Shown in pieces: positions 46,800-60,395 of a stretch of 64,000 bases of DNA. Position 1 is the stretch's first letter, and each line of letters begins with the position of its first letter. The notes below the pieces were generated by a model that was not told the DNA's origin, did not search any database, and saw nothing but the letters and a program-made list of their open reading frames with translations. The stretch comes from Limnobacter sp. (lineage in GTDB: Bacteria > Pseudomonadota > Gammaproteobacteria > Burkholderiales > Burkholderiaceae_B): NCBI GenBank assembly GCA_029866125.1, contig JARWZZ010000007.1:341519-405518 (forward strand), in the 5' to 3' direction. Both the position numbers and the translations under genes were made by a program.

Positions 46800-48200
46800 A
46801 TGAGTGTTCTGATTGTACTGATCTCGCTGGCGTTCCTGATGCTGGTGGCTTATCGCGGCTTCAGCGTGATTCTTTTTGCTCCGATTGCTGCCATGGGTGC
46901 GGTGTTGTTTACTGATCCCAGCCTGGTCATGCCCATGTTCACAGGCTTGTTTATGGACAAGCTGGCGCACTTTGCCAAGTTGTATTTCCCCGTTTTTCTT
47001 CTGGGTGCCATACTCGGAAAAGTCATCGAGCTGTCTGGCTTTGCCAAGTCAATCATTGCCGCTGTGGGTAAGTTTTGCGGCCCCAACAATGCGGTGATAG
47101 CAATTGCCCTTGTGTGCGGTTTGCTGACCTACGGCGGGGTGTCTATTTTTGTAGTTGTTTTTGCAGCCTACCCCTTTGCCGCCGAAATGTTCAAGGCTGG
47201 AAATATTCCAAAGCGCTATATACCTGCAACCCTGGTGGCGGGTGGTGCCACTTTCACCATGGATGCATTGCCAGGTTCACCTCAAATCCAGAACATCATT
47301 CCCACCACATTTTTCAATACTGACACCTGGGCCGCCCCTTGGTTGGGTCTGATTGGTGGCATTTTTGTCTGTGTTGTTTCACTGGGCTATCTGATTTGGC
47401 TAACCCGCCGTGCACAGCGCAAGGGTGATGGTTATGGTCAAAATCTTGTGAATGAACCTGAGCCGTTTACCCTTGAAAAACTACCTCATCCTTTGCTGGC
47501 TTTGTTGCCATTGCTTACGGTTGCGGTGATGAACAAGTTATTTGGCTCCAGCATTATTCCCGCTTTTTATGGGAAGACTGTGGAATTCGTTCCGGCAGTT
47601 ATTGGATCTGCGCCACCGGTTGTACAGGAAGTCCAAAAAGTCATCGCCTTGTGGTCTGTAGAACTGGCTTTGTTGTGTGGCATTGCCGTGTGTTTGTTGA
47701 CTGCTTGGAAAAGTGTAGCGCAGAGGTTTTCGGATGGATCCAAAGCGGCCATCAACGGGGCCATGCTGGCCACTATGAACACAGCGACTGAATATGGTTA
47801 TGGTGCAGTGATCGCCGCATTGCCAGGGTTTTTGATCGTGGCTGAAGCTCTGAAGGCAGTGCCAAATCCTTTGATCAATGAGGCCATTACCGTTACTACA
47901 CTGGCTGGTATTACCGGTTCTGCGTCTGGTGGGTTGAGTATAGCTCTGGCTGCGATGTCTGAGACCTTCATGGCCAGTGCCACCGCAGCGGGAATACCGT
48001 TTGAGGTGTTGCACCGCGTGGCTTCTATGGCTTCCGGTGGCATGGATTCTTTACCTCACAATGGAGCAGTCATCACCCTTTTAGCGGTGTGCGGCTGCAC
48101 TCATCGGGATGCCTATCCCGCTATCTTCGGAATCACGTTGATCAAAACATTCGCAGTTTTTTTCGTGATCGCTGTCTATTATTTGACTGGCATTGTCTAG
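46800..48200 (+). CDS. GntP-family permease (3-hydroxybutyrate/short acid permease-like)
   Basis: LTYGGVS.FVV.FA.YP, LPGSPQIQNIIP, GSASGG, DSLPHNGAVITLL. Confidence 0.88.
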   Translation: MSVLIVLISLAFLMLVAYRGFSVILFAPIAAMGAVLFTDPSLVMPMFTGLFMDKLAHFAKLYFPVFLLGAILGKVIELSGFAKSIIAAVGKFCGPNNAVIAIALVCGLLTYGGVSIFVVVFAAYPFAAEMFKAGNIPKRYIPATLVAGGATFTMDALPGSPQIQNIIPTTFFNTDTWAAPWLGLIGGIFVCVVSLGYLIWLTRRAQRKGDGYGQNLVNEPEPFTLEKLPHPLLALLPLLTVAVMNKLFGSSIIPAFYGKTVEFVPAVIGSAPPVVQEVQKVIALWSVELALLCGIAVCLLTAWKSVAQRFSDGSKAAINGAMLATMNTATEYGYGAVIAALPGFLIVAEALKAVPNPLINEAITVTTLAGITGSASGGLSIALAAMSETFMASATAAGIPFEVLHRVASMASGGMDSLPHNGAVITLLAVCGCTHRDAYPAIFGITLIKTFAVFFVIAVYYLTGIV

Positions 48201-48230: not shown

Positions 48231-48961
48231 ATGAGCAGGGAAGTTGTGATTGTAAGTGCCGTTCGCACGGCAATTGGTACATTTGGCGGAAGCCTCAAAG
48301 ACACTCCACCGACTGAGCTGGCCTCACTGATGGTGAAGACTGCATTGAGTCGAGCCGGTGTAGATGGTCAAGAAGTAGGGCAGGTTGTGTTTGGACATAT
48401 TCTCAACACCGAGCCCAAGGACATGTATTTGTCCCGTGTTGCTGCGGTCAACGGCGGCTGCCCAGTAATCACCCCGGCATTCAATGTGAACCGCTTGTGC
48501 GGTTCAGGTTTGCAGGCTGTGATTTCTGCCAGTCAAAGCATTTTGCTGGGTGATACCGATGTGGCCATTGGCGGTGGCGCAGAATCCATGAGTCGTGGGC
48601 CTTATGTGAGCACCACCTCACGTTGGGGTTCTCGTCTGGGAGATGTCAATCTGATAGACATGGTGCAGTCATCCTTGCATGACCCTTTTTACAATACTCA
48701 CATGTGCGTAACTGCTGAGAATATTGCTGCGGACTGAGGTATCACGCGTGAAGATCAAGACCGTGTTTCTCAAAGACAATGGCACTGTAACCGCGGGAAA
48801 TGCCTCGGGAATCTCACTGGGGCATCCAAGTGGGGGCGACCGGTGCCATCATCACAGTCAAAGCCGTGCACGAGTTGTAACGCACGCAAGGCCGCTATGC
48901 ATTCGTGACCATGTGTATTGGTGGCGGGCAAGGTATTGCCGCTATTTTGGAGCGTTGCTAG
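48231..48961 (+). pseudogene. bktB: Beta-ketothiolase BktB pseudogene: two internal deletions, two nonsense codons and a frameshift
   Basis: Intact 5' part to NRLCGSG..AENIAAD, then TGA (48735-37), GITREDQD joined to VFLKDNGTVTAGNASG, joined to ISLGHP, +1 shift, TAA (48878-80), then MCIGGGQGIAA. Confidence 0.92.
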
Positions 48962-49014
48962 AAAAGAATGTGACGGTGGGCGTATCTATGCGATGGCATA
49001 GATACGCATAATCA

Positions 49015-50502
49015 TTAATCCGGCCAGGCACCATTGGTCAATTTCACAGCATGGAAACCGTTGTAGATATCGGTGTACCAAACCTCTTTTCGCTCAGGTG
49101 CAAAAGTAGGACTAGACATTGCAAAATTGATGGCCTGTGATGGCACAGGCAAGGGGCGTGGTAAAACTGGAGCGTTGAAATAAGCCACCTCCACAGGATG
49201 AAAAATATCCCGAATATCAAAAATTCTCAAGCCTGAAGAAATCATGCTGCAAGCCACAATCGTCGGATTGACGCGTGTGGGAATATTGCAATAGTGCCCC
49301 GCATAACCACCTACCAAACCTGTCCCTGTACCATTGCTGTTTGCAGGGTCGTTGGCAATGGCAGCGCGGCTTTGCGGGCGGTGTACATCAAGCCTGATTT
49401 CTGAAACCACTTTGGGTCGTTTCTCATCCGAGATGTCAATAATTCTGGACGCACCGACTACAATTCCATTGCCCGCGGGGGTGGTGCCGGCCTCATCAGC
49501 TGCAAACTCATCCGCTTCCAGCAAATAAGGTTTACCGTCTTTTGTAAATGGCAGCGCAATTTGTGGAATGGTTGCTGTGGGCCAAGCCAGCGTGGCAATT
49601 TCTTTCACTTTAGGATTGGGCTTTCGCGCTTGAATTTCTGAGGTGTCCAAAATACGCAAATACACAGGTTTGTCATTGGTTGCCATGTACACGCGATTGC
49701 CATCATCGCTGACGGTGATGCCATGTGCGCGATACACACCTGTCCAGAGCGTCTTGGTCAGTTTTGGATTAGACAAATCAACCGCTGCCAGAGTACGTGC
49801 CATTGAGGAGGCGGAATAGAAGGTTTTTCCATCGGGTGAAATGCCACTTTCATGGCCCAGAATGCCGGTTGGAAGCGACGACAAAAGCACCGGAAAACGG
49901 CAATCTTCTTTGAGGTCATACACATCTACAAATCCGGGAGCAGTCACAGGGGTTCCCATTACCGCAGCCAGAATACCGGCTGACTCACTCACCACCAGTG
50001 ACTCATGGGCAGACATCATGGCTGGTGTGCGAAGGGAAGTTGTTTTCTTGGGGCGAGTGGGGTCTGTCATGTCCAAAACCACAACACCCACGTCTCCATC
50101 CAAGGCATCGGTTGGAAACACCAAGGTGGAATCGTAGTAAGCGCATTCGTGACCTTTGTTGTCCTTGTACCGCACTACCTTGTAGCCGCCTACTGTACCA
50201 AAAGGGCTTTGCTCAACATAGGAGCCCACTACCTCTGTGTTGCAGCTGAACCCCGCTGCCGCTTTGCCCGAGTCGTAGTCTTCTTTTGATACACGCCCCT
50301 GCATACCCGACTCCGGCTTTGAGCCGGGACCGCACTGTGCCTGCGGCGTGGCGGGGATTTTACTTGCTTCCGCTGCCGCAGTTTGAGTGGGTGCCACTGT
50401 GCTGGTGATGCCGTTGTTGGTCGAACCGCCGCCACATGCCGAAAGCGTTGCCAAGCAGACCATCGCTGCTTGAGCCAATTTTGTATTTGATGCTTGAGTC
50501 AT
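49015..50502 (-). CDS. LVIVD-like beta-propeller lipoprotein, paralogue 1
   Basis: Lipobox LSAC; repeated D(L/I)S(N/D)P..P blades; ATG at 50502 after GGAGA. Confidence 0.8.
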   Translation of the reverse strand: MTQASNTKLAQAAMVCLATLSACGGGSTNNGITSTVAPTQTAAAEASKIPATPQAQCGPGSKPESGMQGRVSKEDYDSGKAAAGFSCNTEVVGSYVEQSPFGTVGGYKVVRYKDNKGHECAYYDSTLVFPTDALDGDVGVVVLDMTDPTRPKKTTSLRTPAMMSAHESLVVSESAGILAAVMGTPVTAPGFVDVYDLKEDCRFPVLLSSLPTGILGHESGISPDGKTFYSASSMARTLAAVDLSNPKLTKTLWTGVYRAHGITVSDDGNRVYMATNDKPVYLRILDTSEIQARKPNPKVKEIATLAWPTATIPQIALPFTKDGKPYLLEADEFAADEAGTTPAGNGIVVGASRIIDISDEKRPKVVSEIRLDVHRPQSRAAIANDPANSNGTGTGLVGGYAGHYCNIPTRVNPTIVACSMISSGLRIFDIRDIFHPVEVAYFNAPVLPRPLPVPSQAINFAMSSPTFAPERKEVWYTDIYNGFHAVKLTNGAWPD

Positions 50503-50780
50503 GTGACTCGTCTCCAATTCACTGTTGTCTGTGTTGTTTGCTTTTTTATCTATACTCCGGAAGCCCGGGTTTTAGATCTCAATTGTGGAGTCAGAATTTT
50601 CCTCTTTGGTTTTCCGGACCTTCCCATAGTGTTGGCCTTGGATTGCTCAGCTAACAGTCGGATGATTCCATTGGATCTGTCAGAAAAATCTGAATTCGCG
50701 CTGTGTTTAAATTTATGCAGACAAAGCAGGACGGTTGGTAATAGTGTGCCAAGTATCAATCCAACGCATGACCGGAGACT

Positions 50781-52259
50781 GTGGTGAATTTCCCTTTCAA
50801 TCAACGAGACAGCCTAAAAGCGGGCTTAGCCATTCCATTGAGTATTGCGCTGCTCACTATGTTGGTAGCTTGCCAATCCGATTCGCCTACCCCCTCAAGT
50901 GGCATTACCTCTGCTCCCCAAGGCAGCGGCACTCCAGTGGGAGCCAATCAAGCGTCGCCTGCGGTGTGTGGCGCAGGGTCCAAACCCGAGACTGGTTTGC
51001 AGGGGCAAGTACCCTTGGTTGATCGGGAAAGTGGTCGAAGTGAGCAGGGCTATTCTTGCAACATGGAACTGGTGGGCCAATATCAAGGTGAGGGAGCGAC
51101 CTGGGTCAACCCCTCGTATTCGCATTGTGCGTACATGGGCACTACTTTCACAGGCATCTTGCAGAAAAAATCCCAAGGCGTACAGGTAGTCGATGTCAGT
51201 AATCCGGCCAAGCCTGTGTTGTCCACCAACCTAACAAGCCCCGCATTCATGCAAAGCCCTTGGGAATCCATGAAGGTCAATGAACAGCGTGGGCTGCTTG
51301 CAGGTGTAGCGGTGGGGCCAGTGGTAAGTGCTGGATTTTTTGATGTGTATGACATCAGCAAGGATTGCGCCAAACCTGTTTTGCTCAATTCTTTCGCTGG
51401 AAATTTCACCTTGCCTGCAAACGTGATTGGACACGAAGGGGCGTGGTCCCCCGATGGCAACACTTACTGGTCTACGGGTTTGAACCCAGGCTCTGTCACT
51501 GCAATTGATGTGAAAGACCCGAAGAATCCGAGGGTCATTTATTTCGGCATACTCAGCTTTGACAACCACGGATTTGAGTTGAGTGAAGATGGCAATCGCA
51601 TGTACCTCACCACCAAGGTGCCTAGTGGCATCATAGTTTTGGACACGTCTGCTGTTCAGGCGCGCAAACCACTTCCAGTGATTACCCCGATTGGCAGCGT
51701 GACATGGAAAGACGGTGGAACAACTCAACATTCCATCCCAGTGACCTACAGCGGCAAACCGTATCTATTGGCTGTGGATGAGGGCGGGGCAGGTGCGGCG
51801 CGCTTTATTGACATTTCAGACGAGAGAAAACCCAAGGAAGTGTCCAAACTTAAGCTGGCTATACACGCGCCTGAAAATGCGGATATTCGGGCAGCTGACA
51901 CCGCCAACAATGGCACCTTCGGGTATGAAGGGCACTATTGTCAGTTCGATAAGAAGATTGATCCCACTGCTGTGGCCTGCGGCTACATTCAGTCTGGCGT
52001 GCGGGTGTTTGATGTTAGAAACCCTTTGCAACCCAAAGAAATTGCGTATTTCAACCCCCCGGCACAAACCACCAAAAAAGCTCAACTAAAAGGGTCTGAA
52101 CATGCAACCAGTGTGATTGGCGCCACGGCGGATTTGTCCACCGACTGGTGTACTTCACCACCGCGTTTTGTGGCGCCCGACCAATTGTGGGTGACCTGTC
52201 AAGACAACGGCTTTATGGTGCTGAGGTTCACCAATGGAGCTTATCCGCTAGTCAGATGA
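50781..52259 (+). CDS. LVIVD-like beta-propeller lipoprotein, paralogue 2
   Basis: Lipobox LVAC; VVDVSNPAKP, RFIDISDERKP, RVFDVRNP. Confidence 0.82.
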   Translation: MVNFPFNQRDSLKAGLAIPLSIALLTMLVACQSDSPTPSSGITSAPQGSGTPVGANQASPAVCGAGSKPETGLQGQVPLVDRESGRSEQGYSCNMELVGQYQGEGATWVNPSYSHCAYMGTTFTGILQKKSQGVQVVDVSNPAKPVLSTNLTSPAFMQSPWESMKVNEQRGLLAGVAVGPVVSAGFFDVYDISKDCAKPVLLNSFAGNFTLPANVIGHEGAWSPDGNTYWSTGLNPGSVTAIDVKDPKNPRVIYFGILSFDNHGFELSEDGNRMYLTTKVPSGIIVLDTSAVQARKPLPVITPIGSVTWKDGGTTQHSIPVTYSGKPYLLAVDEGGAGAARFIDISDERKPKEVSKLKLAIHAPENADIRAADTANNGTFGYEGHYCQFDKKIDPTAVACGYIQSGVRVFDVRNPLQPKEIAYFNPPAQTTKKAQLKGSEHATSVIGATADLSTDWCTSPPRFVAPDQLWVTCQDNGFMVLRFTNGAYPLVR

Positions 52260-52378
52260 CGAAAACACAAGCAGAACATTCCGAGGAAGAATTAGGATCT
52301 TTCTGACTGACCTGCGAGGAACACCTTTTTTATACTCAAAAACACATTGAGTGTTTGAGTTGAATAAGGTCCCTCTCC

Positions 52379-54661
52379 GTGAAAAACAAAGTCATCGCCT
52401 TTCTTGAAATCACATTAACCAAGCATTCTCTGATTTTGGGATGCCTGAGTTTAAGCGGCTTGATGCTGACCGCATGCAATCAATCGGACGATACTTCGGC
52501 CACCCGCATCAATTCCTTTCAAGCCAACTCCTTGTTTCAAAGCGAGGAGGGCTACCGTCCAGGACCAGAAATTTTGTATGCGGAGCCTGCCAAAGCGCCT
52601 CAATTGGAGAATGTGCTTCCATGGAGTGCTTCACCCATTCTGGTTTCTGGTTCATCGGCCTACCGCAATGGCGAGTTTTTGTATCAGGATTTTTTATACG
52701 ATGACCACGGTGCGGCTGGCATCATCGATCCCATCGATAACCCCTTTTTTATGGAGTTCTCGTTTACACCTGCATCGGGCACGATGACCTACCCCAAGGC
52801 ACCAGAGTATGCCAACAACGCGGCTGACTTGGTCGAATTTCGGGTCAAACCGCTGGACGGAGAAACCGCATTCCGATTGACTTTGAACACACTGATCGAT
52901 GCCAGTCGAAGTGCATTCACTATTGCAATCGGGGATTCAGATTCTCCCCGTGTTTGGCCGCACGGTGCAGGGGTTAAGTCACCTGCAGCCATGTTCCTCA
53001 CAGTTCATGGTGATGTTGCAACCCTAATTGATGCAAGCAACGGTAAGGAAATTTTACCTGCCCCTGCTGTTAAAGTGGACTTGCAAAGGCGTCAAATCGA
53101 TGTGCGGGTGCTTCACTCCGCTTGGAATCCAGGTCGAAATACTGTCAGAATGAGCAGTGGCGTGGGTGTGTGGGATGTAGCATCAGGCTCATACCTTAAG
53201 CCTAGGCTTTCTGCTTCTGAAACAGCACCTGGCGGTATGGCGCCTGGCGGCGCTTCGCTGTTCAATATGGCATTTCGCTTCAATGAGCCCCTTCCTGATT
53301 TCAAGACTTATGGGCTTGGTCTTGCCTATGTAGATTCATTGGCCATTTTTCAAGCAACACCCAAAATGTTCTGGCGTGAGTATGCGCAGTCTCAGGCTCT
53401 GCGTGATGGGGATGTCACTCCGTTTTTTGCGCAAGTGGATTTTGCCAAACTGTCCAGCAAAACGGACGATGATTCAGGTGTTCCCAAGACCGGAAAACTG
53501 AATCGGATCTTCGCCAGTCAGTTTGCATTTGCGCAAGGTGTGGATTTCACAAAAATGTGCGATAGACTTGTTGATGGCGGCACATGTGAAGGCTCCTTCC
53601 GCGGCCAGTTACAGCCTTACTCCATTTACATTCCAGACCGCGCGCAACCTGCTGATGGTTGGGGCATGACCCTCTTGCTGCACGCTTTGGGCACCAATTA
53701 CAACTTATTTACCAACAGCAAATACCAGTCCAGTCTGGGCGAAAGAGGCAAGGGTTCATTGGTCGTCTCTCCGTTGTCCAGAGGGCATGACGGTGACTAC
53801 ACTGACATCGCAGAGGCAGACGTGTTTGAAGTCTGGGCTGACGTGGCCCGTCACTACCCTTTGGATAAGACATGGAGTACGGTCACCGGATTCTCAATGG
53901 GTGGAGGAGGCACATTCTCCATGCTTGCCCGCTGGCCCGACCTTTTTGCAGCAGGGGCAGGTGTAGCTGCCTTGCCCGAGGGCGATCGAATCAAGTCAAT
54001 GCGTAATACACCCGTGATGACTTGGATCGGTTTGCTGGATGAAGGGTCAACACCAGATCGACAAACGACTTCCAGCAGTAAACTCCAAAAAGAGGGTTTG
54101 CGATTTGTATTCGATCAGTTTCCAGCAGCAGACCATTTGACGCTTGCAACGAATGACGAATACAGTCCGCTTGTTGAATTTCTCGAAACGCCCAGATTGA
54201 ATCCAGACCCCTCTCATGTGACTTTTGTCGTGCAAACCAAGCGTGACTCTGCTCGCGCAAAAACAGTGGCAGACCATGCGTACTGGTTGTCTGGCTTGAA
54301 GTTGCGAAACACGGAGTCGCCTGATGGATCCGTTGTGGGCCCAAGCGGTCAGATTGATGCGTATTCACAGGCTTTTGGTCTTGGCCCAGCCATGGCAAAA
54401 GGGGCGGTCACTTCAATGGGCGTATTGCAGGGCGGAGCACATGGCCCTACGCCGTACATCAGGTCCAGTCAGGAGCTAGACCCACCTGCAAAAACTCAAG
54501 CCATGGACACACTGGTTTTGACTGCCAAAAACATTGCCAGTATGACCGTGGACGTGCGCCGTGCGCGGCTTAGCTGTAACCCCATTATTAAAGCAACAAG
54601 CGATGGGCCTTTGAGCATACTTCTGAAAGGCTGTGACCGAGTTGTTCAAGTGGATTCATGA
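52379..54661 (+). CDS. Large lipoprotein: glucodextranase/DOMON-like N-terminal part + alpha/beta hydrolase
   Basis: Lipobox LTAC; YQDFLYDDHGA; TGFSMGG nucleophile elbow; DHL candidate catalytic His. Confidence 0.75.
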   Translation: MKNKVIAFLEITLTKHSLILGCLSLSGLMLTACNQSDDTSATRINSFQANSLFQSEEGYRPGPEILYAEPAKAPQLENVLPWSASPILVSGSSAYRNGEFLYQDFLYDDHGAAGIIDPIDNPFFMEFSFTPASGTMTYPKAPEYANNAADLVEFRVKPLDGETAFRLTLNTLIDASRSAFTIAIGDSDSPRVWPHGAGVKSPAAMFLTVHGDVATLIDASNGKEILPAPAVKVDLQRRQIDVRVLHSAWNPGRNTVRMSSGVGVWDVASGSYLKPRLSASETAPGGMAPGGASLFNMAFRFNEPLPDFKTYGLGLAYVDSLAIFQATPKMFWREYAQSQALRDGDVTPFFAQVDFAKLSSKTDDDSGVPKTGKLNRIFASQFAFAQGVDFTKMCDRLVDGGTCEGSFRGQLQPYSIYIPDRAQPADGWGMTLLLHALGTNYNLFTNSKYQSSLGERGKGSLVVSPLSRGHDGDYTDIAEADVFEVWADVARHYPLDKTWSTVTGFSMGGGGTFSMLARWPDLFAAGAGVAALPEGDRIKSMRNTPVMTWIGLLDEGSTPDRQTTSSSKLQKEGLRFVFDQFPAADHLTLATNDEYSPLVEFLETPRLNPDPSHVTFVVQTKRDSARAKTVADHAYWLSGLKLRNTESPDGSVVGPSGQIDAYSQAFGLGPAMAKGAVTSMGVLQGGAHGPTPYIRSSQELDPPAKTQAMDTLVLTAKNIASMTVDVRRARLSCNPIIKATSDGPLSILLKGCDRVVQVDS

Positions 54662-55998
54662 GTACGGCTGGCTTTTATACTCAATCCAATGGTGACCTGA
54701 TCACCCTCGCAACTGGCGCGAACCTCACCACCATGAAGCCTGGAAATGGCAGCCACAATAGCCAATCCCAATCCATGGTTGGCATGGCTTTCTGTGCGTG
54801 ATTTTTCCACACGGTAAAAGGGTTCGAACAGTCGGTGAATTGCATCGTGTGGAATGGGTTTACCCGTGTTGCGAACCTCAATCCAAACCAAGTCACTTTC
54901 ATGTTCCTGCTGAATTGAAATGTTCACAGTGCTTCCTGCATTGGCGTACCGAATCGCATTGGATAGCAGGTTGGACACTGCGCGCTTCAATAGCTCGGAG
55001 TCGCATTCTGCCGACGCATCACCCGTCAGCTTGGCATCCAATTGTGCATCTTCCAGACTGTAAGCAAAGTACTCCAACACCCCTTCAAGCGGAGCCCGAA
55101 CCGAGGGTAGGGTGGTGAAGTTTCCACGTTGGCCTTGGGTGGTATGCGCCAAAAAAAGCATGCTTTGGATAATACGGTTCATGCGCTGCAATTCTTCAAG
55201 ATTGGAGTGAATCGAGTCTCTCCAATGCGCGGAATCTACGTCTTTTTCTTTCAGTAAAAGTTCATGGCTAATCGTCAAGCTGGACAAAGGGGTGTTCAGC
55301 TCATGGGCCACATTGTTGTTGAATGAAAGCAGCTGTTGGTTGTACTGGGTAACCTTGCCCATCAGCATATTGAATTGCTCGATCACTGGCAGCAACTCAT
55401 CGGGCTCCTTGCTGGAGTCAATTGAAATCATGCTTTTTTCATTCGATTGCGCAGGGTTAAACTCGGCAATGCGACGACCAAACTCCCTGAGGGGCTTAAG
55501 TTGGAGTTTGGCCAGTATGGCGCTAATCACCACCACAATACCTGCCCACACAATGGACGCAATCACAAACAAGCCACCAATGAAGGTCAGGAAGTTTCGG
55601 TCTTCTGTGATGTTCATGGCCAATTCAAGGTCTGCCATGGGCATTTCGCCACCCAAACCCGCCAGCGAAATCATGTAGGTTTCCTTGTACTTGGCATCGG
55701 CCCAAAGCACTGGCGGGCCGTACATAATTTGCCCATCTGCACCAATCACTTTGGCTTGCACATTGCCAATGCTGAGTAAAACCTCATCCAATCGTTGCCA
55801 CATTTCAGCAGCGTTGGCCATGCTGTTTTTGATAAGCACTTGTTCCGCCGCCAGCGTGGCTTGTTCAATCGCGTCGTGATGTCGCATTTGCTGCCACATC
55901 CAAATACTTTGGTAGGCAAATGCTGCAATCACGACTACGCCCACCATGCTAAGCAAGGAAATTTGCAATGATGCTCGACGCGCCATGGAAAATTTCAT
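54646..55998 (-). CDS. Heavy-metal-type sensor kinase (CusS/IrlS-like)
   Basis: Two TMs; VAHELNTPL, NLLSNAIRY, FEPFYR, GLGLAIV. Confidence 0.88.
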   Translation of the reverse strand: MKFSMARRASLQISLLSMVGVVVIAAFAYQSIWMWQQMRHHDAIEQATLAAEQVLIKNSMANAAEMWQRLDEVLLSIGNVQAKVIGADGQIMYGPPVLWADAKYKETYMISLAGLGGEMPMADLELAMNITEDRNFLTFIGGLFVIASIVWAGIVVVISAILAKLQLKPLREFGRRIAEFNPAQSNEKSMISIDSSKEPDELLPVIEQFNMLMGKVTQYNQQLLSFNNNVAHELNTPLSSLTISHELLLKEKDVDSAHWRDSIHSNLEELQRMNRIIQSMLFLAHTTQGQRGNFTTLPSVRAPLEGVLEYFAYSLEDAQLDAKLTGDASAECDSELLKRAVSNLLSNAIRYANAGSTVNISIQQEHESDLVWIEVRNTGKPIPHDAIHRLFEPFYRVEKSRTESHANHGLGLAIVAAISRLHGGEVRASCEGDQVTIGLSIKASRTHEST

Positions 55999-56723
55999 GA
56001 TTCATTTCCATCCTGTGGTGGTTCTGGCCGCAATTCCAGCACATAGCCCATGCCCCTTACGGTGTGCAAAAGTGGGGTGTTGAAAGGGTCGTCCATCTTG
56101 CCCCGCAATCGGCGAATGGCCACATCCACCACATTGGTTTCGCTGTCAAAATGCATGTCCCACACCAACTCTGCCAACTCGGTGCGGCTGAGTACTTCGC
56201 CTTTTCTACGCAGTAATAACCACAGCAATGTGAATTCTTTGGCGGTTAAACGTAGGTCTTGTCCGGCACGGCGGGCTTGACGTTTAAGTGCGTCCAGTTC
56301 CAAATCTGCAAGCGATAAACTGGTTGCCGCCGCTTGGGGGTTTCCGTTGTTACCAACGCCAATGGTTCTGCGCATCAGCGCATGTACGCGTGCAACCAAT
56401 TCAGAAAATGCAAAAGGTTTGGTCAGGTAATCGTCCGCCCCGGCTTGTAGCCCCTTCACACGGTCTTCCACCATGGATCGCGCTGTCAGCATCAGCACTG
56501 CGGTTGATTTTTTATTGCTCTGACGCAAGGCCTGCAAAACTCCAAGGCCATCAAGGTCGGGAAGCATGCCGTCCAGAATGATGAGGTCATATTGACCTTC
56601 CGTGGCCAAGTGCAAGCCGTCAATGCCTGAGTGGGCAATGTCCACAACAAAGCCTTCTGCCACCAATCCCTTCTTCAGGTATTGGGTGAGTTTGATTTCG
56701 TCTTCAATAAGTAGGAGTTTCAT
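55995..56723 (-). CDS. Heavy-metal-type OmpR response regulator (CusR/IrlR-like)
   Basis: MKLLLIEDE start at 56723; GADDYLTKPFAFSEL, FDSETNVVDVAIRRLR.K.DDPF..LLHTVRGMGY. Confidence 0.92.
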   Translation of the reverse strand: MKLLLIEDEIKLTQYLKKGLVAEGFVVDIAHSGIDGLHLATEGQYDLIILDGMLPDLDGLGVLQALRQSNKKSTAVLMLTARSMVEDRVKGLQAGADDYLTKPFAFSELVARVHALMRRTIGVGNNGNPQAAATSLSLADLELDALKRQARRAGQDLRLTAKEFTLLWLLLRRKGEVLSRTELAELVWDMHFDSETNVVDVAIRRLRGKMDDPFNTPLLHTVRGMGYVLELRPEPPQDGNES

Positions 56724-56757
56724 GAAAGCAGTATATGCAAACCAGCTGGAATGTTCG

Positions 56758-56773
56758 ATTACAAATTTGTAAT
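56758..56773. promoter_or_regulatory. Perfect palindrome ATTACA-AATT-TGTAAT, CusR/CopR-box-like
   Basis: Lies between the divergent regulator and a small secreted gene; fits the cop-box pattern T(G/T)ACA-N4-TGTAAT. Confidence 0.7.
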
Positions 56774-56882
56774 GTTGCAGTGGGGGTTTGGTCATGAGGG
56801 GCTGGTTAAGCTGGGAACCATGTCGAAGCAAGTCGCCCAGACAACACTGAAAACCGAAACTTAAATCCTTAGGAGAATTACC

Positions 56883-57254
56883 ATGAACACACGCCAATTC
56901 AACGCCAAGTCTTTCATTGCCACAGCAGCCATCGCGTTTGCCGCCGCAGCACCCACATTTGCTTTTGCATGGGGTACTGGTGAACAAACTGAGCACCCAG
57001 TATTTAGCACCAGTGTAAGCCGCTCTGCACCCTTGAACACGCTGGCATGGGGCCTCGGTGATCAAACTGAGTTTCCTCAATTCAATCCGGTTATCAAGTC
57101 TGAAGGTGAGGCCTTTTCTGGATTGGTCACAGCGAGCGATCGCATGCAAAAGAAAGCCATGGCAACAGCGCTGAATCAGAAAACCCGGATGCAGGTTTTA
57201 GATGAGCTAAAAATGGCAAGTGATTTTGAACGCGCCCAGCAAAATGTAAATTGA
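56883..57254 (+). CDS. Small secreted protein with internal AWGxG(E/D)QTExP repeat, DUF4148-like C-terminus
   Basis: AFA signal peptide; RBS AGGAGA; repeats 26 aa apart; TRMQVLDEL..A. Confidence 0.82.
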   Translation: MNTRQFNAKSFIATAAIAFAAAAPTFAFAWGTGEQTEHPVFSTSVSRSAPLNTLAWGLGDQTEFPQFNPVIKSEGEAFSGLVTASDRMQKKAMATALNQKTRMQVLDELKMASDFERAQQNVN

Positions 57255-57316
57255 GTTCTTAGGTGCTTGGGTCACTGACTGCTGTCAATTGCCAATATCA
57301 ATGTGGCAGCAGTTAC

Positions 57317-57688
57317 TCAAGCCTTCTTGACCTGAAAACCTTGGCCCTTCAGGTTCTCGACCATCTTGTCACAGTGGTCGCCTTGTATTTCAATGACTCC
57401 ATCTTTGACTGTGCCGCCCGATCCGCATGCAGTGCGTAATTGTTTACCCAGTGCAGCCAGTGCGATTGCGTCCAGCGGCAGCCCCTTGATCACCGTAACG
57501 CTTTTGCCCCCACGCCCTTTGGTTTGAAGCGACACGCGCACCTGCCCATCACCCAGTTTATTGGCCTGCGCGGCCTGCTTGCAGCTGCATTGTGCCAGCG
57601 CGTTGCGGCATGTGGGGCATGTACGGCCCACCTCGGTGGAGTACACCAGTCCACCTTTGGGTTGATCGCTTCTCGAGTTAAATTTCAT
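57317..57688 (-). CDS. yciH: Translation initiation factor SUI1/YciH
   Basis: GLVYSTE.GR, KGRGGK.VT.I.GL, CG.GGTVKDG.IEIQGD. Confidence 0.95.
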   Translation of the reverse strand: MKFNSRSDQPKGGLVYSTEVGRTCPTCRNALAQCSCKQAAQANKLGDGQVRVSLQTKGRGGKSVTVIKGLPLDAIALAALGKQLRTACGSGGTVKDGVIEIQGDHCDKMVENLKGQGFQVKKA

Positions 57689-57807
57689 GGTTGGTTTTGC
57701 AGTATTCTTGTTGGGTGCTTAAGCTTAAGGCAATTTAGATGCCTTTGGCAGCCCCCTCATGTGTAGCACTTCTTGAACATTTTCTTCAACCCAACAATTT
57801 AAACACG

Positions 57808-58197
57808 ATGCACTCTTTGTTAACCCCACTCGCTGACCTTGTTTTGGTGTTGCACACGGCAGTGGCTGCATTTGTGGTGTTGGGTTTGCCTGTGATTTGG
57901 ATTGGAAATTGGAAAAGTTGGGTTTGGGTCAATAAGCTTTGGTTTAGGCTGCTGCATTTGGGCACCATTGGCTTTGTGGTTGTTCAATCGCTACTGGGTA
58001 TGGTGTGCCCGCTCACCATTCTTGAGAATTGGCTCCGCACGCTGGCTGGCGGGGAAGGGCCTGGCCCCAGTTTTATTGAGTATTGGTTCACACGGCTTCT
58101 TTTTTACCAAGCGCCCACCGAGGTTTTTACCCTCGCTTACACGCTTTTTGGGCTTGCTGTGGCTTGGACTTGGTGGAAATTTCCGCCGAAGCCGTGA
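57808..58197 (+). CDS. DUF2784 family membrane protein
   Basis: LADLVLVLH..FVV.G, FRLLHL, CPLT.LENWLR. Confidence 0.88.
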   Translation: MHSLLTPLADLVLVLHTAVAAFVVLGLPVIWIGNWKSWVWVNKLWFRLLHLGTIGFVVVQSLLGMVCPLTILENWLRTLAGGEGPGPSFIEYWFTRLLFYQAPTEVFTLAYTLFGLAVAWTWWKFPPKP

Positions 58198-58207
58198 TCG
58201 GTAATTT

Positions 58208-58888
58208 TTAAAGCATCCCCTTCATCATCAACAACTCTTTCAATTGTTCTCGCTTGATCTGGTTGGTCAGGCTTTTAATCAATTCTGATTGGGCATGTCG
58301 CCCCGCAAACTCCGCCATTTCCACTGCCGCTTCGTGGTGTCTAATCATCAGTTCCAAAAACAGACGGTCTTTTGCAGGCCCAGTTCTGGATGACAACTGC
58401 TCAAAATCATTCATGGTAGGGGAGCCAGGCATAAGCCCACCTTCGCTGGCTTTGCAGCGGCTGATGTAGTTCAGGTCTTCAACTGAAATTTGTTTGCTGG
58501 GAAGGTCCACCCAGTCCATGGTGGAGCCCGATGGCACCACAGGTTTTCCCCATGCGGTCAGCCAGCCTTGCATCAAGCCTCGCTCATGGCTTTGCGCAAT
58601 CACTATTACGTGGGTTAACTTTTCGATCTGCGGATCGGCCGAATGTATGGCCAGAGTAGACAATATGATGGCCTCATCATGGTGTTTCATCATGGCCTGT
58701 GCAAAGCCAATGTCCACATCATTGGGGTTTAGTACAAGGTTGTTGTTCGGTTTTAAATAAGAAATAAAGCTCATTGATTGAGCCTGATTAGAAAAATGAC
58801 TCACTCCCAAGCCCACTGAAAGCAAGCTTATTGTGACCAGGCCAGCCACTTGCACTTTACGTTTTATATTCACTTTCAAAGTCATCAT
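58208..58888 (-). CDS. DUF305 (ferritin-like, CopM-type) protein
   Basis: DIGFAQ.M..HH.EAI, MPG, FLELMIRHH..AVEMA. Confidence 0.9.
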   Translation of the reverse strand: MMTLKVNIKRKVQVAGLVTISLLSVGLGVSHFSNQAQSMSFISYLKPNNNLVLNPNDVDIGFAQAMMKHHDEAIILSTLAIHSADPQIEKLTHVIVIAQSHERGLMQGWLTAWGKPVVPSGSTMDWVDLPSKQISVEDLNYISRCKASEGGLMPGSPTMNDFEQLSSRTGPAKDRLFLELMIRHHEAAVEMAEFAGRHAQSELIKSLTNQIKREQLKELLMMKGML

Positions 58889-58892
58889 CTTT

Positions 58893-60395
58893 TCACTTCA
58901 AAGGGTAGGTGCCGGGGGCAAATTCAAGCGCCATAAACCCATTGTCTACGCACACCACCCAAAGCTGTCCATTGGGTTTAAACACAGGGGGAGACGTGCA
59001 CCAATCCGTGCTGAAGTCTGCATTTTGCCCAGCAAGAGGTGAATTGTGTTCAGACCCCTGCAGCTGTAATTTTTTGTTGGCTTGTGCTGGGGGGTTAAAG
59101 TAAGCAAACTCCTGTGGGGCGCTGGGGTTGCGAATATCAAATACACGAATACCTGATTCGAAATACCCGCAGGCCATGGCCGTGGGGTCAATAGGGCTGT
59201 CCAGCGTGCAGTAGTGGGACTCATAACCAAAAAGTCCGTTCCTGCCCAACAGGCCTTCGACCTTGAAATCATTGTCTGATTGGCGAGTTGCAGCCTGACT
59301 GGCTTGGTGAATATCCAGTTTCAGGTGCGATACCATCACTGGTTTTTTCTCATCCTGAATGTCCAGAATACGCACCACACCTGTATCCAACTCGTCTGCC
59401 ACCACCAACAATTGGCGACCGTTTTGTGTAAACGGAATGGTTGATTGGGTGTTGCCCTCAGTGCTCCAGTGCAGGCTACCTACCATCCTAATTTGTGGAT
59501 TGGGTTTGCGCAGCTGAATGTCACTCACATCAAAAATATTCACGCCAGTGGGGTTGATGGATGCAGCGTACATACGTGTGCCATCTGCATTGAACTCAAA
59601 CCCATGATTGGAGTTTGTGGGGGCTGCCATGTAAAGCATTTTTGGCTTTGTTGGGTCTTCCAAACCAATTGCTGCAATGTCTCCTCGTGATGAGGTTACC
59701 CAATAGGTGTTGCCATCAGGAGACCACCCACCTTCATGGCCCAATATGGTTTGTGGAAGTGTGAGATTGCCCGCCAGTTTATTCAGCAACACGGGTTGTT
59801 TGCAGTCTTTGGAAATGTCATACACATCCAAAAATACTGCACCTAAAATTGGCCCCACTGCTGCGCCTGCAAGTAAGCCTCGCTTCTCATTTACCTTCAG
59901 CGATTCCCAAGGCCCGATCGCAAATGCAGGGCTGGTTAGGTTGGTAGCAAACTTGGGATTACGTGGGTCACTTACATCCACAACCTGCACGCCTTGGCGA
60001 GCTTTAAGTGGAATTCCAGAAAAGCTGGTGCCCATGTACGCGCAATCTTTGTAAATGGGATTCACCCAGGTTGCCCCTTCCCCCTGATACTGTCCTATCA
60101 AGCTTAGGTTGCATGAGTAGCCTTGCTGACTTCGACCGCTGTCTCGGTCTTTTTTGCTCACCCGGCCTTGAATATCAGTTTCTGGCTTGTCGGTCGCTTG
60201 GCAATTGTTGGCGCGCGTCACCGATTCATTGGCGGCAATTGGGGCTGCATTCCCGCCCACTCCCGATGAAGCTGTGGAGCCAGACGATCCCCCCAAGCAT
60301 CCGCTTAAAACAAGGCAGGAACTCAAAGCAAATATGCCAAGGCCAACGGGGTTCTTATGCTTCAGAAAGCTGAAAAGCTGCGTGTGATTGTTCAT
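58893..60395 (-). CDS. LVIVD-like beta-propeller lipoprotein, paralogue 3
   Basis: Lipobox LSGC; long identity blocks with 50781-52259 (GQYQGEGATWVNP, STDWCTSPP). Confidence 0.82.
   Translation of the reverse strand: MNNHTQLFSFLKHKNPVGLGIFALSSCLVLSGCLGGSSGSTASSGVGGNAAPIAANESVTRANNCQATDKPETDIQGRVSKKDRDSGRSQQGYSCNLSLIGQYQGEGATWVNPIYKDCAYMGTSFSGIPLKARQGVQVVDVSDPRNPKFATNLTSPAFAIGPWESLKVNEKRGLLAGAAVGPILGAVFLDVYDISKDCKQPVLLNKLAGNLTLPQTILGHEGGWSPDGNTYWVTSSRGDIAAIGLEDPTKPKMLYMAAPTNSNHGFEFNADGTRMYAASINPTGVNIFDVSDIQLRKPNPQIRMVGSLHWSTEGNTQSTIPFTQNGRQLLVVADELDTGVVRILDIQDEKKPVMVSHLKLDIHQASQAATRQSDNDFKVEGLLGRNGLFGYESHYCTLDSPIDPTAMACGYFESGIRVFDIRNPSAPQEFAYFNPPAQANKKLQLQGSEHNSPLAGQNADFSTDWCTSPPVFKPNGQLWVVCVDNGFMALEFAPGTYPLK

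Follow-up and report, generated by a model that had tools for sequence, protein, structure and literature searches.

The window analysed here, a 64,000-nucleotide stretch of Limnobacter sp. DNA (contig JARWZZ010000007.1, positions 341,519 to 405,518), carries three genes, W1, W2 and W3, for paralogous propeller lipoproteins, the last of them followed by a gene for a DUF305 protein. W1–W3 are lipoprotein-anchored, disulfide-stabilised seven-bladed β-propellers of the superfamily of the ‘haloalkylphosphorus hydrolase’ in PDB entries 5IOJ and 5HRM, namely Sb-PTE, the flame-retardant-degrading phosphotriesterase of Sphingobium sp. TCM1. They belong to a large sister clade of Sb-PTE, here called Gln-type after one residue of the predicted metal site, in which the propeller gene is genetically coupled to one of the DUF305/CopM-like type. 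We are highly confident that the system is a metallo-propeller within the Sb-PTE superfamily and that it is coupled to DUF305. The genes concerned are as follows.

49015–50502 (−): W1, paralog 1; open reading frame 49015–50517, 500 residues, with the ATG at 50502 as the likely start
50781–52259 (+): W2, paralog 2; 492 residues
58893–60395 (−): W3, paralog 3; 500 residues
58208–58888 (−): DUF305/CopM-like partner with an N-terminal membrane anchor, 4 nucleotides downstream of the W3 stop codon

An earlier, sequence-only reading of this DNA had described three paralogous lipoproteins with common motif blocks, and every block that it listed was found in them. The blocks C-x5-PE..QG, SCN, CAY, DC-x2-P, (W/H)ES, GHE, HG, DE, HYC and AC are invariant in W1–W3 and, in the same comparison, STDWCTSPP is limited to W2 and W3. 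Identity is 57% between W2 and W3, 40% between W1 and W2, and 38% between W1 and W3. Signal peptides were read from the sequences by eye, using L-[ASV]-[AG]-C at their end as the lipobox criterion; W1 has LSAC, W2 LVAC and W3 LSGC, each followed by a low-complexity linker rich in Ser, Thr, Gly and Pro, which marks the three as predicted signal peptidase II substrates and hence predicted lipoproteins. The genome (3.28 Mb in 21 contigs, its closest named loci being from Limnobacter) holds six paralogs in all, namely W1–W3 and one copy each on contigs C21, C1 and C4, and all six carry a lipobox (LSAC, LVAC, LSGC, LVAC, LTGC and LAAC). Three of the six lie inside 11.4 kb, for which our own rough estimate of the chance, given random positions in 3.28 Mb, is ~2e-4. 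The presence of six copies in 3.3 Mb suggests that the system matters for the biology of its Limnobacter-like host.

The relationship to Sb-PTE was established from both sequence and structure. A phmmer search of the PDB sequences with W2 gave a single clear relative, 5IOJ (E = 1.3e-25), while a profile of 66 family members matches 5IOJ over its full length (hmmsearch, E = 2.8e-44) and hhalign, run against 36 aligned Sb-PTE relatives, returns a probability of 100 (E = 6.2e-47, 389 columns). The AlphaFold2 model of W2, the copy modelled, achieved a predicted local distance difference test (pLDDT) score of 89.6 and a predicted template modelling (pTM) score of 0.88. Its top match in a Foldseek search of the PDB is 5HRM (E = 5e-31, template modelling (TM) score 0.74–0.75, 25% identity), and the next match follows only at E = 6e-9. 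The family profile also matches the S-layer protein 1L0Q (E = 8e-14). The family numbers 544 clusters (50% identity) at E up to 1e-30 and 2,066 at E up to 1e-10. A scan of species-representative genomes returned 552 relatives, of which the best 80 loci were analysed; these come from Proteobacteria and Actinomycetota, with Limnobacter, Nevskiales, Aquabacterium, sphingomonads and many actinomycetes among them.

These results change how the proteins should be labelled. The sequence-only reading had offered them as a candidate new family, a proposal overtaken by the existence of a crystallised and characterised relative at 25% identity, and as LVIVD-type propellers, an assignment that falls short of the Pfam threshold: LVIVD (PF08309) scores 18.2 bits for W2 and 15.0 for W3 against a cut-off of 20.2, and W1 has no match. 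Many homologues do bear a precomputed PF08309 match and the database name ‘LVIVD repeat-containing protein’, others being listed as ‘hypothetical’. Nor do the structural relatives suggested at that stage stand: NosZ ranks 42nd in Foldseek with a TM score of 0.32, and SELENBP1/methanethiol oxidase and the carotenoid oxygenases lie outside the top 50. Three further family assignments were rejected, these being choice-of-anchor B (TIGR04312; 23.6 and 24.3 bits where 100 are required), methanethiol oxidase MtoX/SELENBP1 (NF052453; no more than 18 bits, on a single blade, where 650 are required) and a hydrazine synthase model with a sub-threshold match in the Pfam/NCBIfam scan.

The hub of the Sb-PTE propeller reportedly holds a two-manganese centre bridged by Glu-201, in which His-389, Glu-407 and His-475 are said to bind one metal and His-258 and His-317 the other. 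All six positions (E201, H258, H317, H389, E407 and H475) are invariant in 120 Sb-PTE relatives of 47–99% identity, a pattern consistent with this ligand list. The corresponding residues, in W2 numbering, were mapped by phmmer, hmmsearch, MAFFT and hhalign.

E162 of W2: E201 of Sb-PTE
H218 of W2: H258 of Sb-PTE
H263 of W2: H317 of Sb-PTE
Q316 of W2: H389 of Sb-PTE
E334 of W2: E407 of Sb-PTE
H385 of W2: H475 of Sb-PTE

The four methods agree throughout save in the E162 column, where hmmsearch and hhalign pair E162 with E201 and phmmer and MAFFT are offset by three residues. Ninety family sequences, the six paralogs and 84 relatives from the 80 loci, could be aligned at the hub columns. E162, H218, E219, H263, Q316, E334, H385 and Y386 are invariant in all 90 and D333 is present in 89, while the core E-H-H-Q-E-H pattern is dominant among the 150 best cluster representatives. 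Five of the six reported Sb-PTE ligands are therefore kept in the family and the sixth, His-389, is replaced by an invariant Gln (90/90). Two changes correlate with this Gln, both at positions adjoining ligands, where G/A/S-406 becomes Asp (D333) and Phe-476 becomes Tyr (Y386); these two residues are specific to the clade. The conserved Glu and His residues had earlier been taken to form a central metal site, and their alignment with the reported metal ligands of Sb-PTE lends that prediction support.

Cysteine covariation was followed across 151 aligned rows (150 cluster representatives plus Sb-PTE), rows gapped at either position being uncounted.

Cys 63/93: both present in 123, one in 1, neither in 1
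Cys 116/196: both present in 133, one in 0, neither in 0
Cys 387/400: both present in 141, one in 0, neither in 1
Cys 457/473: both present in 43, one in 0, neither in 33

The two members of each pair thus co-vary. In the Sb-PTE clade, the Cys pairs at the positions of 116/196 and 457/473 show no variation, and in Sb-PTE itself they are reportedly disulfides of the crystal structure. This pattern speaks for the earlier proposal that the Cys pairs form disulfides. Both cysteines of the 457/473 pair are missing in W1 and in the C1 and C4 copies, and are kept only in W2, W3 and the C21 copy.

DUF305 is a common domain with no assigned function, and the only member known to have been studied, CopM, is described as a copper-binding resistance protein. 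The partner of W3 scores 117 bits with Pfam PF03713 (threshold 27) and 71 bits with the NCBIfam CopM model (NF049983, cut-off 90), and its PDB matches include 2QF9 over the whole domain (E = 3.4e-17) and CopM 5FFA (E = 3.6e-12). M66, H69, H70, M153, H184, H185, M191 and E218 are invariant in 78 of 78 DUF305 partner sequences. In this genome the C21 and C1 propeller copies also abut a DUF305 gene, so that three of four DUF305 genes adjoin a propeller. The fourth (C16:175616-175891; L101:6422-6907) is a short single-repeat form that stands alone, with no propeller or copper genes nearby.

The same arrangement recurs across the 80 loci. An adjacent DUF305 gene lies on the same strand as the propeller in 69, downstream in 65 and upstream in 4, which bears out the earlier remark that such propellers often occur with DUF305. 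In two loci the DUF305 gene is on the opposite strand and there forms part of a second, convergent cassette, and nine loci, some of them at contig ends, have none. Overlap of the propeller and DUF305 stop and start codons is common, as in Sporichthya. W3 with its partner is a canonical propeller–DUF305 cassette. W2 orthologs in other Limnobacter have DUF305 upstream and W1 is without an adjacent DUF305 gene; no DUF305 remnant was found when one was looked for in the W1–W2 intergenic region (50503–50780). Two relatives, Limnobacter humi (L026) and a Limnobacter metagenome-assembled genome (L029), carry two tail-to-tail cassettes, a clade-B propeller with DUF305 facing a clade-A propeller (clades A and B being defined below) with a 368-residue DUF305 protein; in relatives, both propeller clades are thus found together as a double module. 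One cluster representative of 723 residues (P0129) is an apparent propeller–LPATG–transmembrane–DUF305 fusion, possibly a two-gene read-through in an actinomycete, and was left unused as evidence. We found no biochemical characterisation of a DUF305–propeller pair in the literature.

To explore the history of the copies, a tree of the six paralogs and the relatives from the 80 loci was rooted on Sb-PTE, which sits on a very long separate branch. Two deep clades result, A with W1 and the C1 and C4 copies, and B with W2, W3 and the C21 copy. All copies but W3 group with others from Limnobacter or Burkholderiaceae genomes. W3, without a close ortholog among the 80 loci, is a long-branch, fast-evolving copy (end branch 0.7). 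The tree thus indicates old duplications and no recent tandem event.

Loci of the Sb-PTE clade itself, with His at position 389 (L095–L099), present a different neighbourhood: DUF305 is found in 0/5, and a tannase/feruloyl-esterase (PF07519) gene is adjacent in 4/5. TonB receptors and other esterases are often present at these loci as well. This setting hints at an ancestral role of the Sb-PTE clade in aromatic-ester catabolism. Because the His-389-type loci lack DUF305 and mostly have the tannase gene, the Gln/Asp/Tyr triad and DUF305 coupling go together and set this clade apart from that of the characterised hydrolase.

On balance we lean towards an exported metalloenzyme, most probably a hydrolase, for which DUF305 supplies or guards the metal. 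Within this proposal a helper role for DUF305 is probable and hydrolytic chemistry is a tentative assignment; copper is a possible metal, with zinc, manganese and iron as the other candidates. The protein would be exported unfolded by the Sec and lipoprotein route and would fold outside the cytoplasm, forming three or four disulfides (C63–C93, C116–C196, C387–C400 and C457–C473). The hub would then acquire one or two metal ions, bound on one side by E162, which corresponds to the bridging residue of Sb-PTE, together with H218 and H263, and on the opposite side by Q316, E334 and H385. Delivery, insertion or proofing of the metal would fall to the DUF305 protein, which is membrane-anchored and carries invariant His-His and Met residues; it may be able to act in trans on orphan copies, since three of the six genome copies lack a DUF305 gene. 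Finally, water or hydroxide activated by the metal would attack an ester-type substrate, as in Sb-PTE.

The neighbours of the DUF305-less copies bear on this last step.

52379–54661 (+): 760-residue lipoprotein (p741 ortholog) with a carboxylesterase/feruloyl-esterase-like central domain, 120 nucleotides downstream of W2
50503–50780 (no strand): divergent W1–W2 intergenic region, where sister contig L100 holds the p740 gene

The central domain of the 760-residue lipoprotein matches 3WYD (LC-Est1C; E = 5.6e-18), and its counterpart, at 76% identity, adjoins the W2 ortholog in L100. The gene order there is <-W1<-p740 | W2->p741->, with p740 and p741 both lipoproteins of ~740 residues and a W1 ortholog 89% identical to W1. 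The p740 gene (esterase-type, 740 residues; L100:7655-9877, 2.2 kb), placed between the W1 and W2 orthologs, is missing from the window. The DUF305-less W1 and W2 thus adjoin esterase lipoproteins, one in the window and both in the sister genome. This arrangement fits ester-hydrolysis chemistry and echoes the way tannase genes pair with the Sb-PTE clade. Beside W1 in the window lies a broken thiolase gene (48231–49011, +), consisting of a 168-residue N-terminal open reading frame and a 95-residue fragment, which is intact in L100 (394 residues); its N-terminal part is 93% identical to the L100 protein, and the break reflects either a pseudogene or a deletion in the assembly.

Three points weigh against the proposed hydrolase. 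The 760-residue esterase lipoprotein type is absent from the other 80 loci, so that the esterase pairing is lineage-specific. In addition, the predicted convergence of the hub residues rests on alignment to reported Sb-PTE ligand positions. Furthermore, the chemistry may differ from that of Sb-PTE, because Gln takes the place of one ligand and the hydrolase clade shows no DUF305 coupling (0/5).

The remaining neighbours in the window contribute less. A two-component pair lies between the esterase lipoprotein gene and the W3 cassette.

54646–55998 (−): heavy-metal-type sensor histidine kinase, CopS/CusS-like (TIGR01386 262.7 bits, cut-off 292.55; Pfam HisKA and HATPase_c)
55995–56723 (−): heavy-metal response regulator, CopR/CusR-like (TIGR01387 289.7 bits, cut-off 279.2)

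The longest copR open reading frame extends to 57149, and the TIGR01387 match begins at its residue 143. The sequence-only reading had linked the propellers to this CusRS-like system and to an adjacent DUF1302 locus; neither link is seen in relatives, as the pair at 54646–57149 and DUF1302/DUF1329 are each a conserved neighbour in 0/80 loci. As far as the comparative data go, both are local coincidences. Besides DUF305, only generic short-chain dehydrogenase/reductase (15 loci) and acyl-CoA dehydrogenase (10 loci) genes recur around the 80 loci, with no conserved family among them, and the larger neighbour clusters were rejected as antisense-open-reading-frame artefacts. No synteny beyond the two-gene pair was found between the window and other Limnobacter loci. 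The upstream regions of the six paralogs have no 8-mer common to three or more, and a search for inverted repeats gave no meaningful ones; a TTACA-N2-TGTAA palindrome before W3 was discarded as no commoner than chance (1.5 expected per window).

Two further reading frames were noted in passing. Divergent from copR and overlapping its over-long open reading frame is a frame of 123 residues (56883–57254, +) that starts with an evident signal peptide and repeats the motif W-G-x-G-(E/D)-Q-T-E-(H/F)-P. Upstream of the thiolase gene, 46800–48200 (+) encodes a 466-residue permease-like polytopic membrane protein with no Pfam or NCBIfam match, which is kept in the sister contig between a LuxR-type regulator and the thiolase gene.

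A bolder version of the metalloenzyme proposal is that the Gln-type, DUF305-coupled propellers constitute a distinct, unrecognised extracytoplasmic metalloenzyme class, in which a CopM-like chaperone loads the hub, possibly with copper, and the chemistry is unlike His-type hydrolysis. We regard this as conceivable and rather doubtful. If true, the main role of DUF305 would lie in enzyme maturation, not in soaking up copper.

Somewhat less likely again is that the propeller works with copper, as an oxidase or another kind of redox enzyme perhaps acting on sulfur or aromatic compounds, which is loaded with copper by DUF305 and whose expression is tied to copper or sulfur-compound stress. The invariant His/Met set of the DUF305 partners is of the sort usual in periplasmic proteins that bind Cu(I), and copper binding is documented for the DUF305 protein CopM (PMC4335983). 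Operon context elsewhere points the same way: in the copper-induced curA operon of Myxococcus xanthus a propeller lipoprotein gene is directly followed by one for a DUF305 lipoprotein (PMC3707914), and a DUF305–propeller pair of Starkeya novella is induced on tetrathionate under an extracytoplasmic function (ECF) sigma factor (PMC6527743). The likeness of these two propellers to ours is, however, one of gene arrangement. The CopRS-like pair, 2.2 kb from the window cassette, would suit copper responsiveness, but it is a conserved neighbour in none of the 80 loci. The changes H389→Q, small residue→D and F→Y, together with DUF305 coupling, do set the clade apart from the hydrolase clade; the resulting ligand set is nevertheless carboxylate-rich, with no Cys or Met, which is atypical for copper sites. 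Known enzymes of this kind give poor matches (NosZ at a TM score of 0.32, MtoX at 18 bits against a cut-off of 650), and diatom and DtxR papers place DUF305 domains in iron-related contexts too.

We consider it improbable that the propellers are not enzymes at all, serving instead as surface or periplasmic binding or scaffold proteins or, with DUF305, as a metal-sequestering pair for copper tolerance. The first descriptions of LVIVD/YVTN propellers came from cell-surface proteins (PMC2447325), the family profile has its match to the S-layer protein 1L0Q, and a sponge-like role in metal binding has been proposed for CopM (bioRxiv 10.1101/013581). With one site in 50 kDa of protein, however, the propeller would be a poor sponge, and six hub residues strictly invariant across phyla, in six old paralogs and coinciding with the reported catalytic ligands, form the pattern of an active site.

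That W1–W3 are functional orthologs of Sb-PTE, phosphotriesterases degrading organophosphate flame retardants or plasticisers, is most improbable: Sb-PTE is their only strong relative in sequence and structure, and five of its six reported ligands and two of its three disulfides are kept, but identity is 25% across a very long separating branch, the His-389 of 120 Sb-PTE relatives is Gln in all 90 family members, the conserved partner is DUF305 and not a tannase, the family is old and extends across phyla, and the triester substrates are man-made (PMC9853848).

The findings have consequences beyond this locus. They link DUF305, in a nearly obligate way, to a large propeller family that is exported and has a predicted enzyme-type metal site, and they place Sb-PTE in a sister branch that differs in one ligand and in its partner gene. 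Assigning a function would cover two unannotated families at once, and could reveal the ancestral activity from which the flame-retardant phosphotriesterase was recruited.

Several known systems resemble the propeller–DUF305 cassette in part. Genes E (MXAN_3417, propeller lipoprotein) and F (MXAN_3416, DUF305 lipoprotein) of the M. xanthus curA operon have the same gene order, in an operon that is copper-responsive and under a two-component system (PMC3707914). MXAN_3417 is annotated with PQQ_2 domains and is likened to W1–W3 by description only; the operon also has multicopper oxidase and CopA ATPase genes (PMC3707914), copper-handling functions that are absent from the window. The accessible text of that report gives no individual phenotype for genes E and F (PMC3707914). 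In S. novella, Snov_0990 (DUF305) and Snov_0991 (YVTN propeller) share the two-gene architecture, lie 12 bp apart and have an experimentally mapped promoter (PMC6527743). They are under the ECF sigma factor RpoE1 and tetrathionate-induced (PMC6527743), whereas no ECF sigma gene lies near the window copies, and Snov_0991 is likened to W1–W3 by architecture only.

CopM of Synechocystis PCC 6803 and the DUF305 structures 5FEJ, 5FFA–E, 2QF9 and 3BT5 resemble the partner, which likewise has two HH motifs and conserved Met residues and is exported or membrane-anchored. The partner differs in falling below the CopM cut-off (71 vs 90 bits) and in being coupled to a propeller gene, not to copRS in one operon.

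Sb-PTE is the closest comparison for the propeller, with the same seven-bladed fold, full-length profile homology and export in both. It stands apart in a separate deep clade at 25% identity, and the W1–W3 copies are lipoprotein-anchored. Ligand positions E201, H258, H317, E407 and H475 are common to both, whereas His-389 is Gln in the family. The Sb-PTE pair C146–C242 is kept in all copies, C542–C559 is kept only in W2, W3 and the C21 copy, and C411–C443 is absent (G/A there), the family gaining C63–C93 and C387–C400. Finally, the conserved neighbour in the Sb-PTE clade is a tannase-family esterase, with DUF305 in 0/5 loci, whereas in the Gln-type clade it is DUF305, in 69/80.

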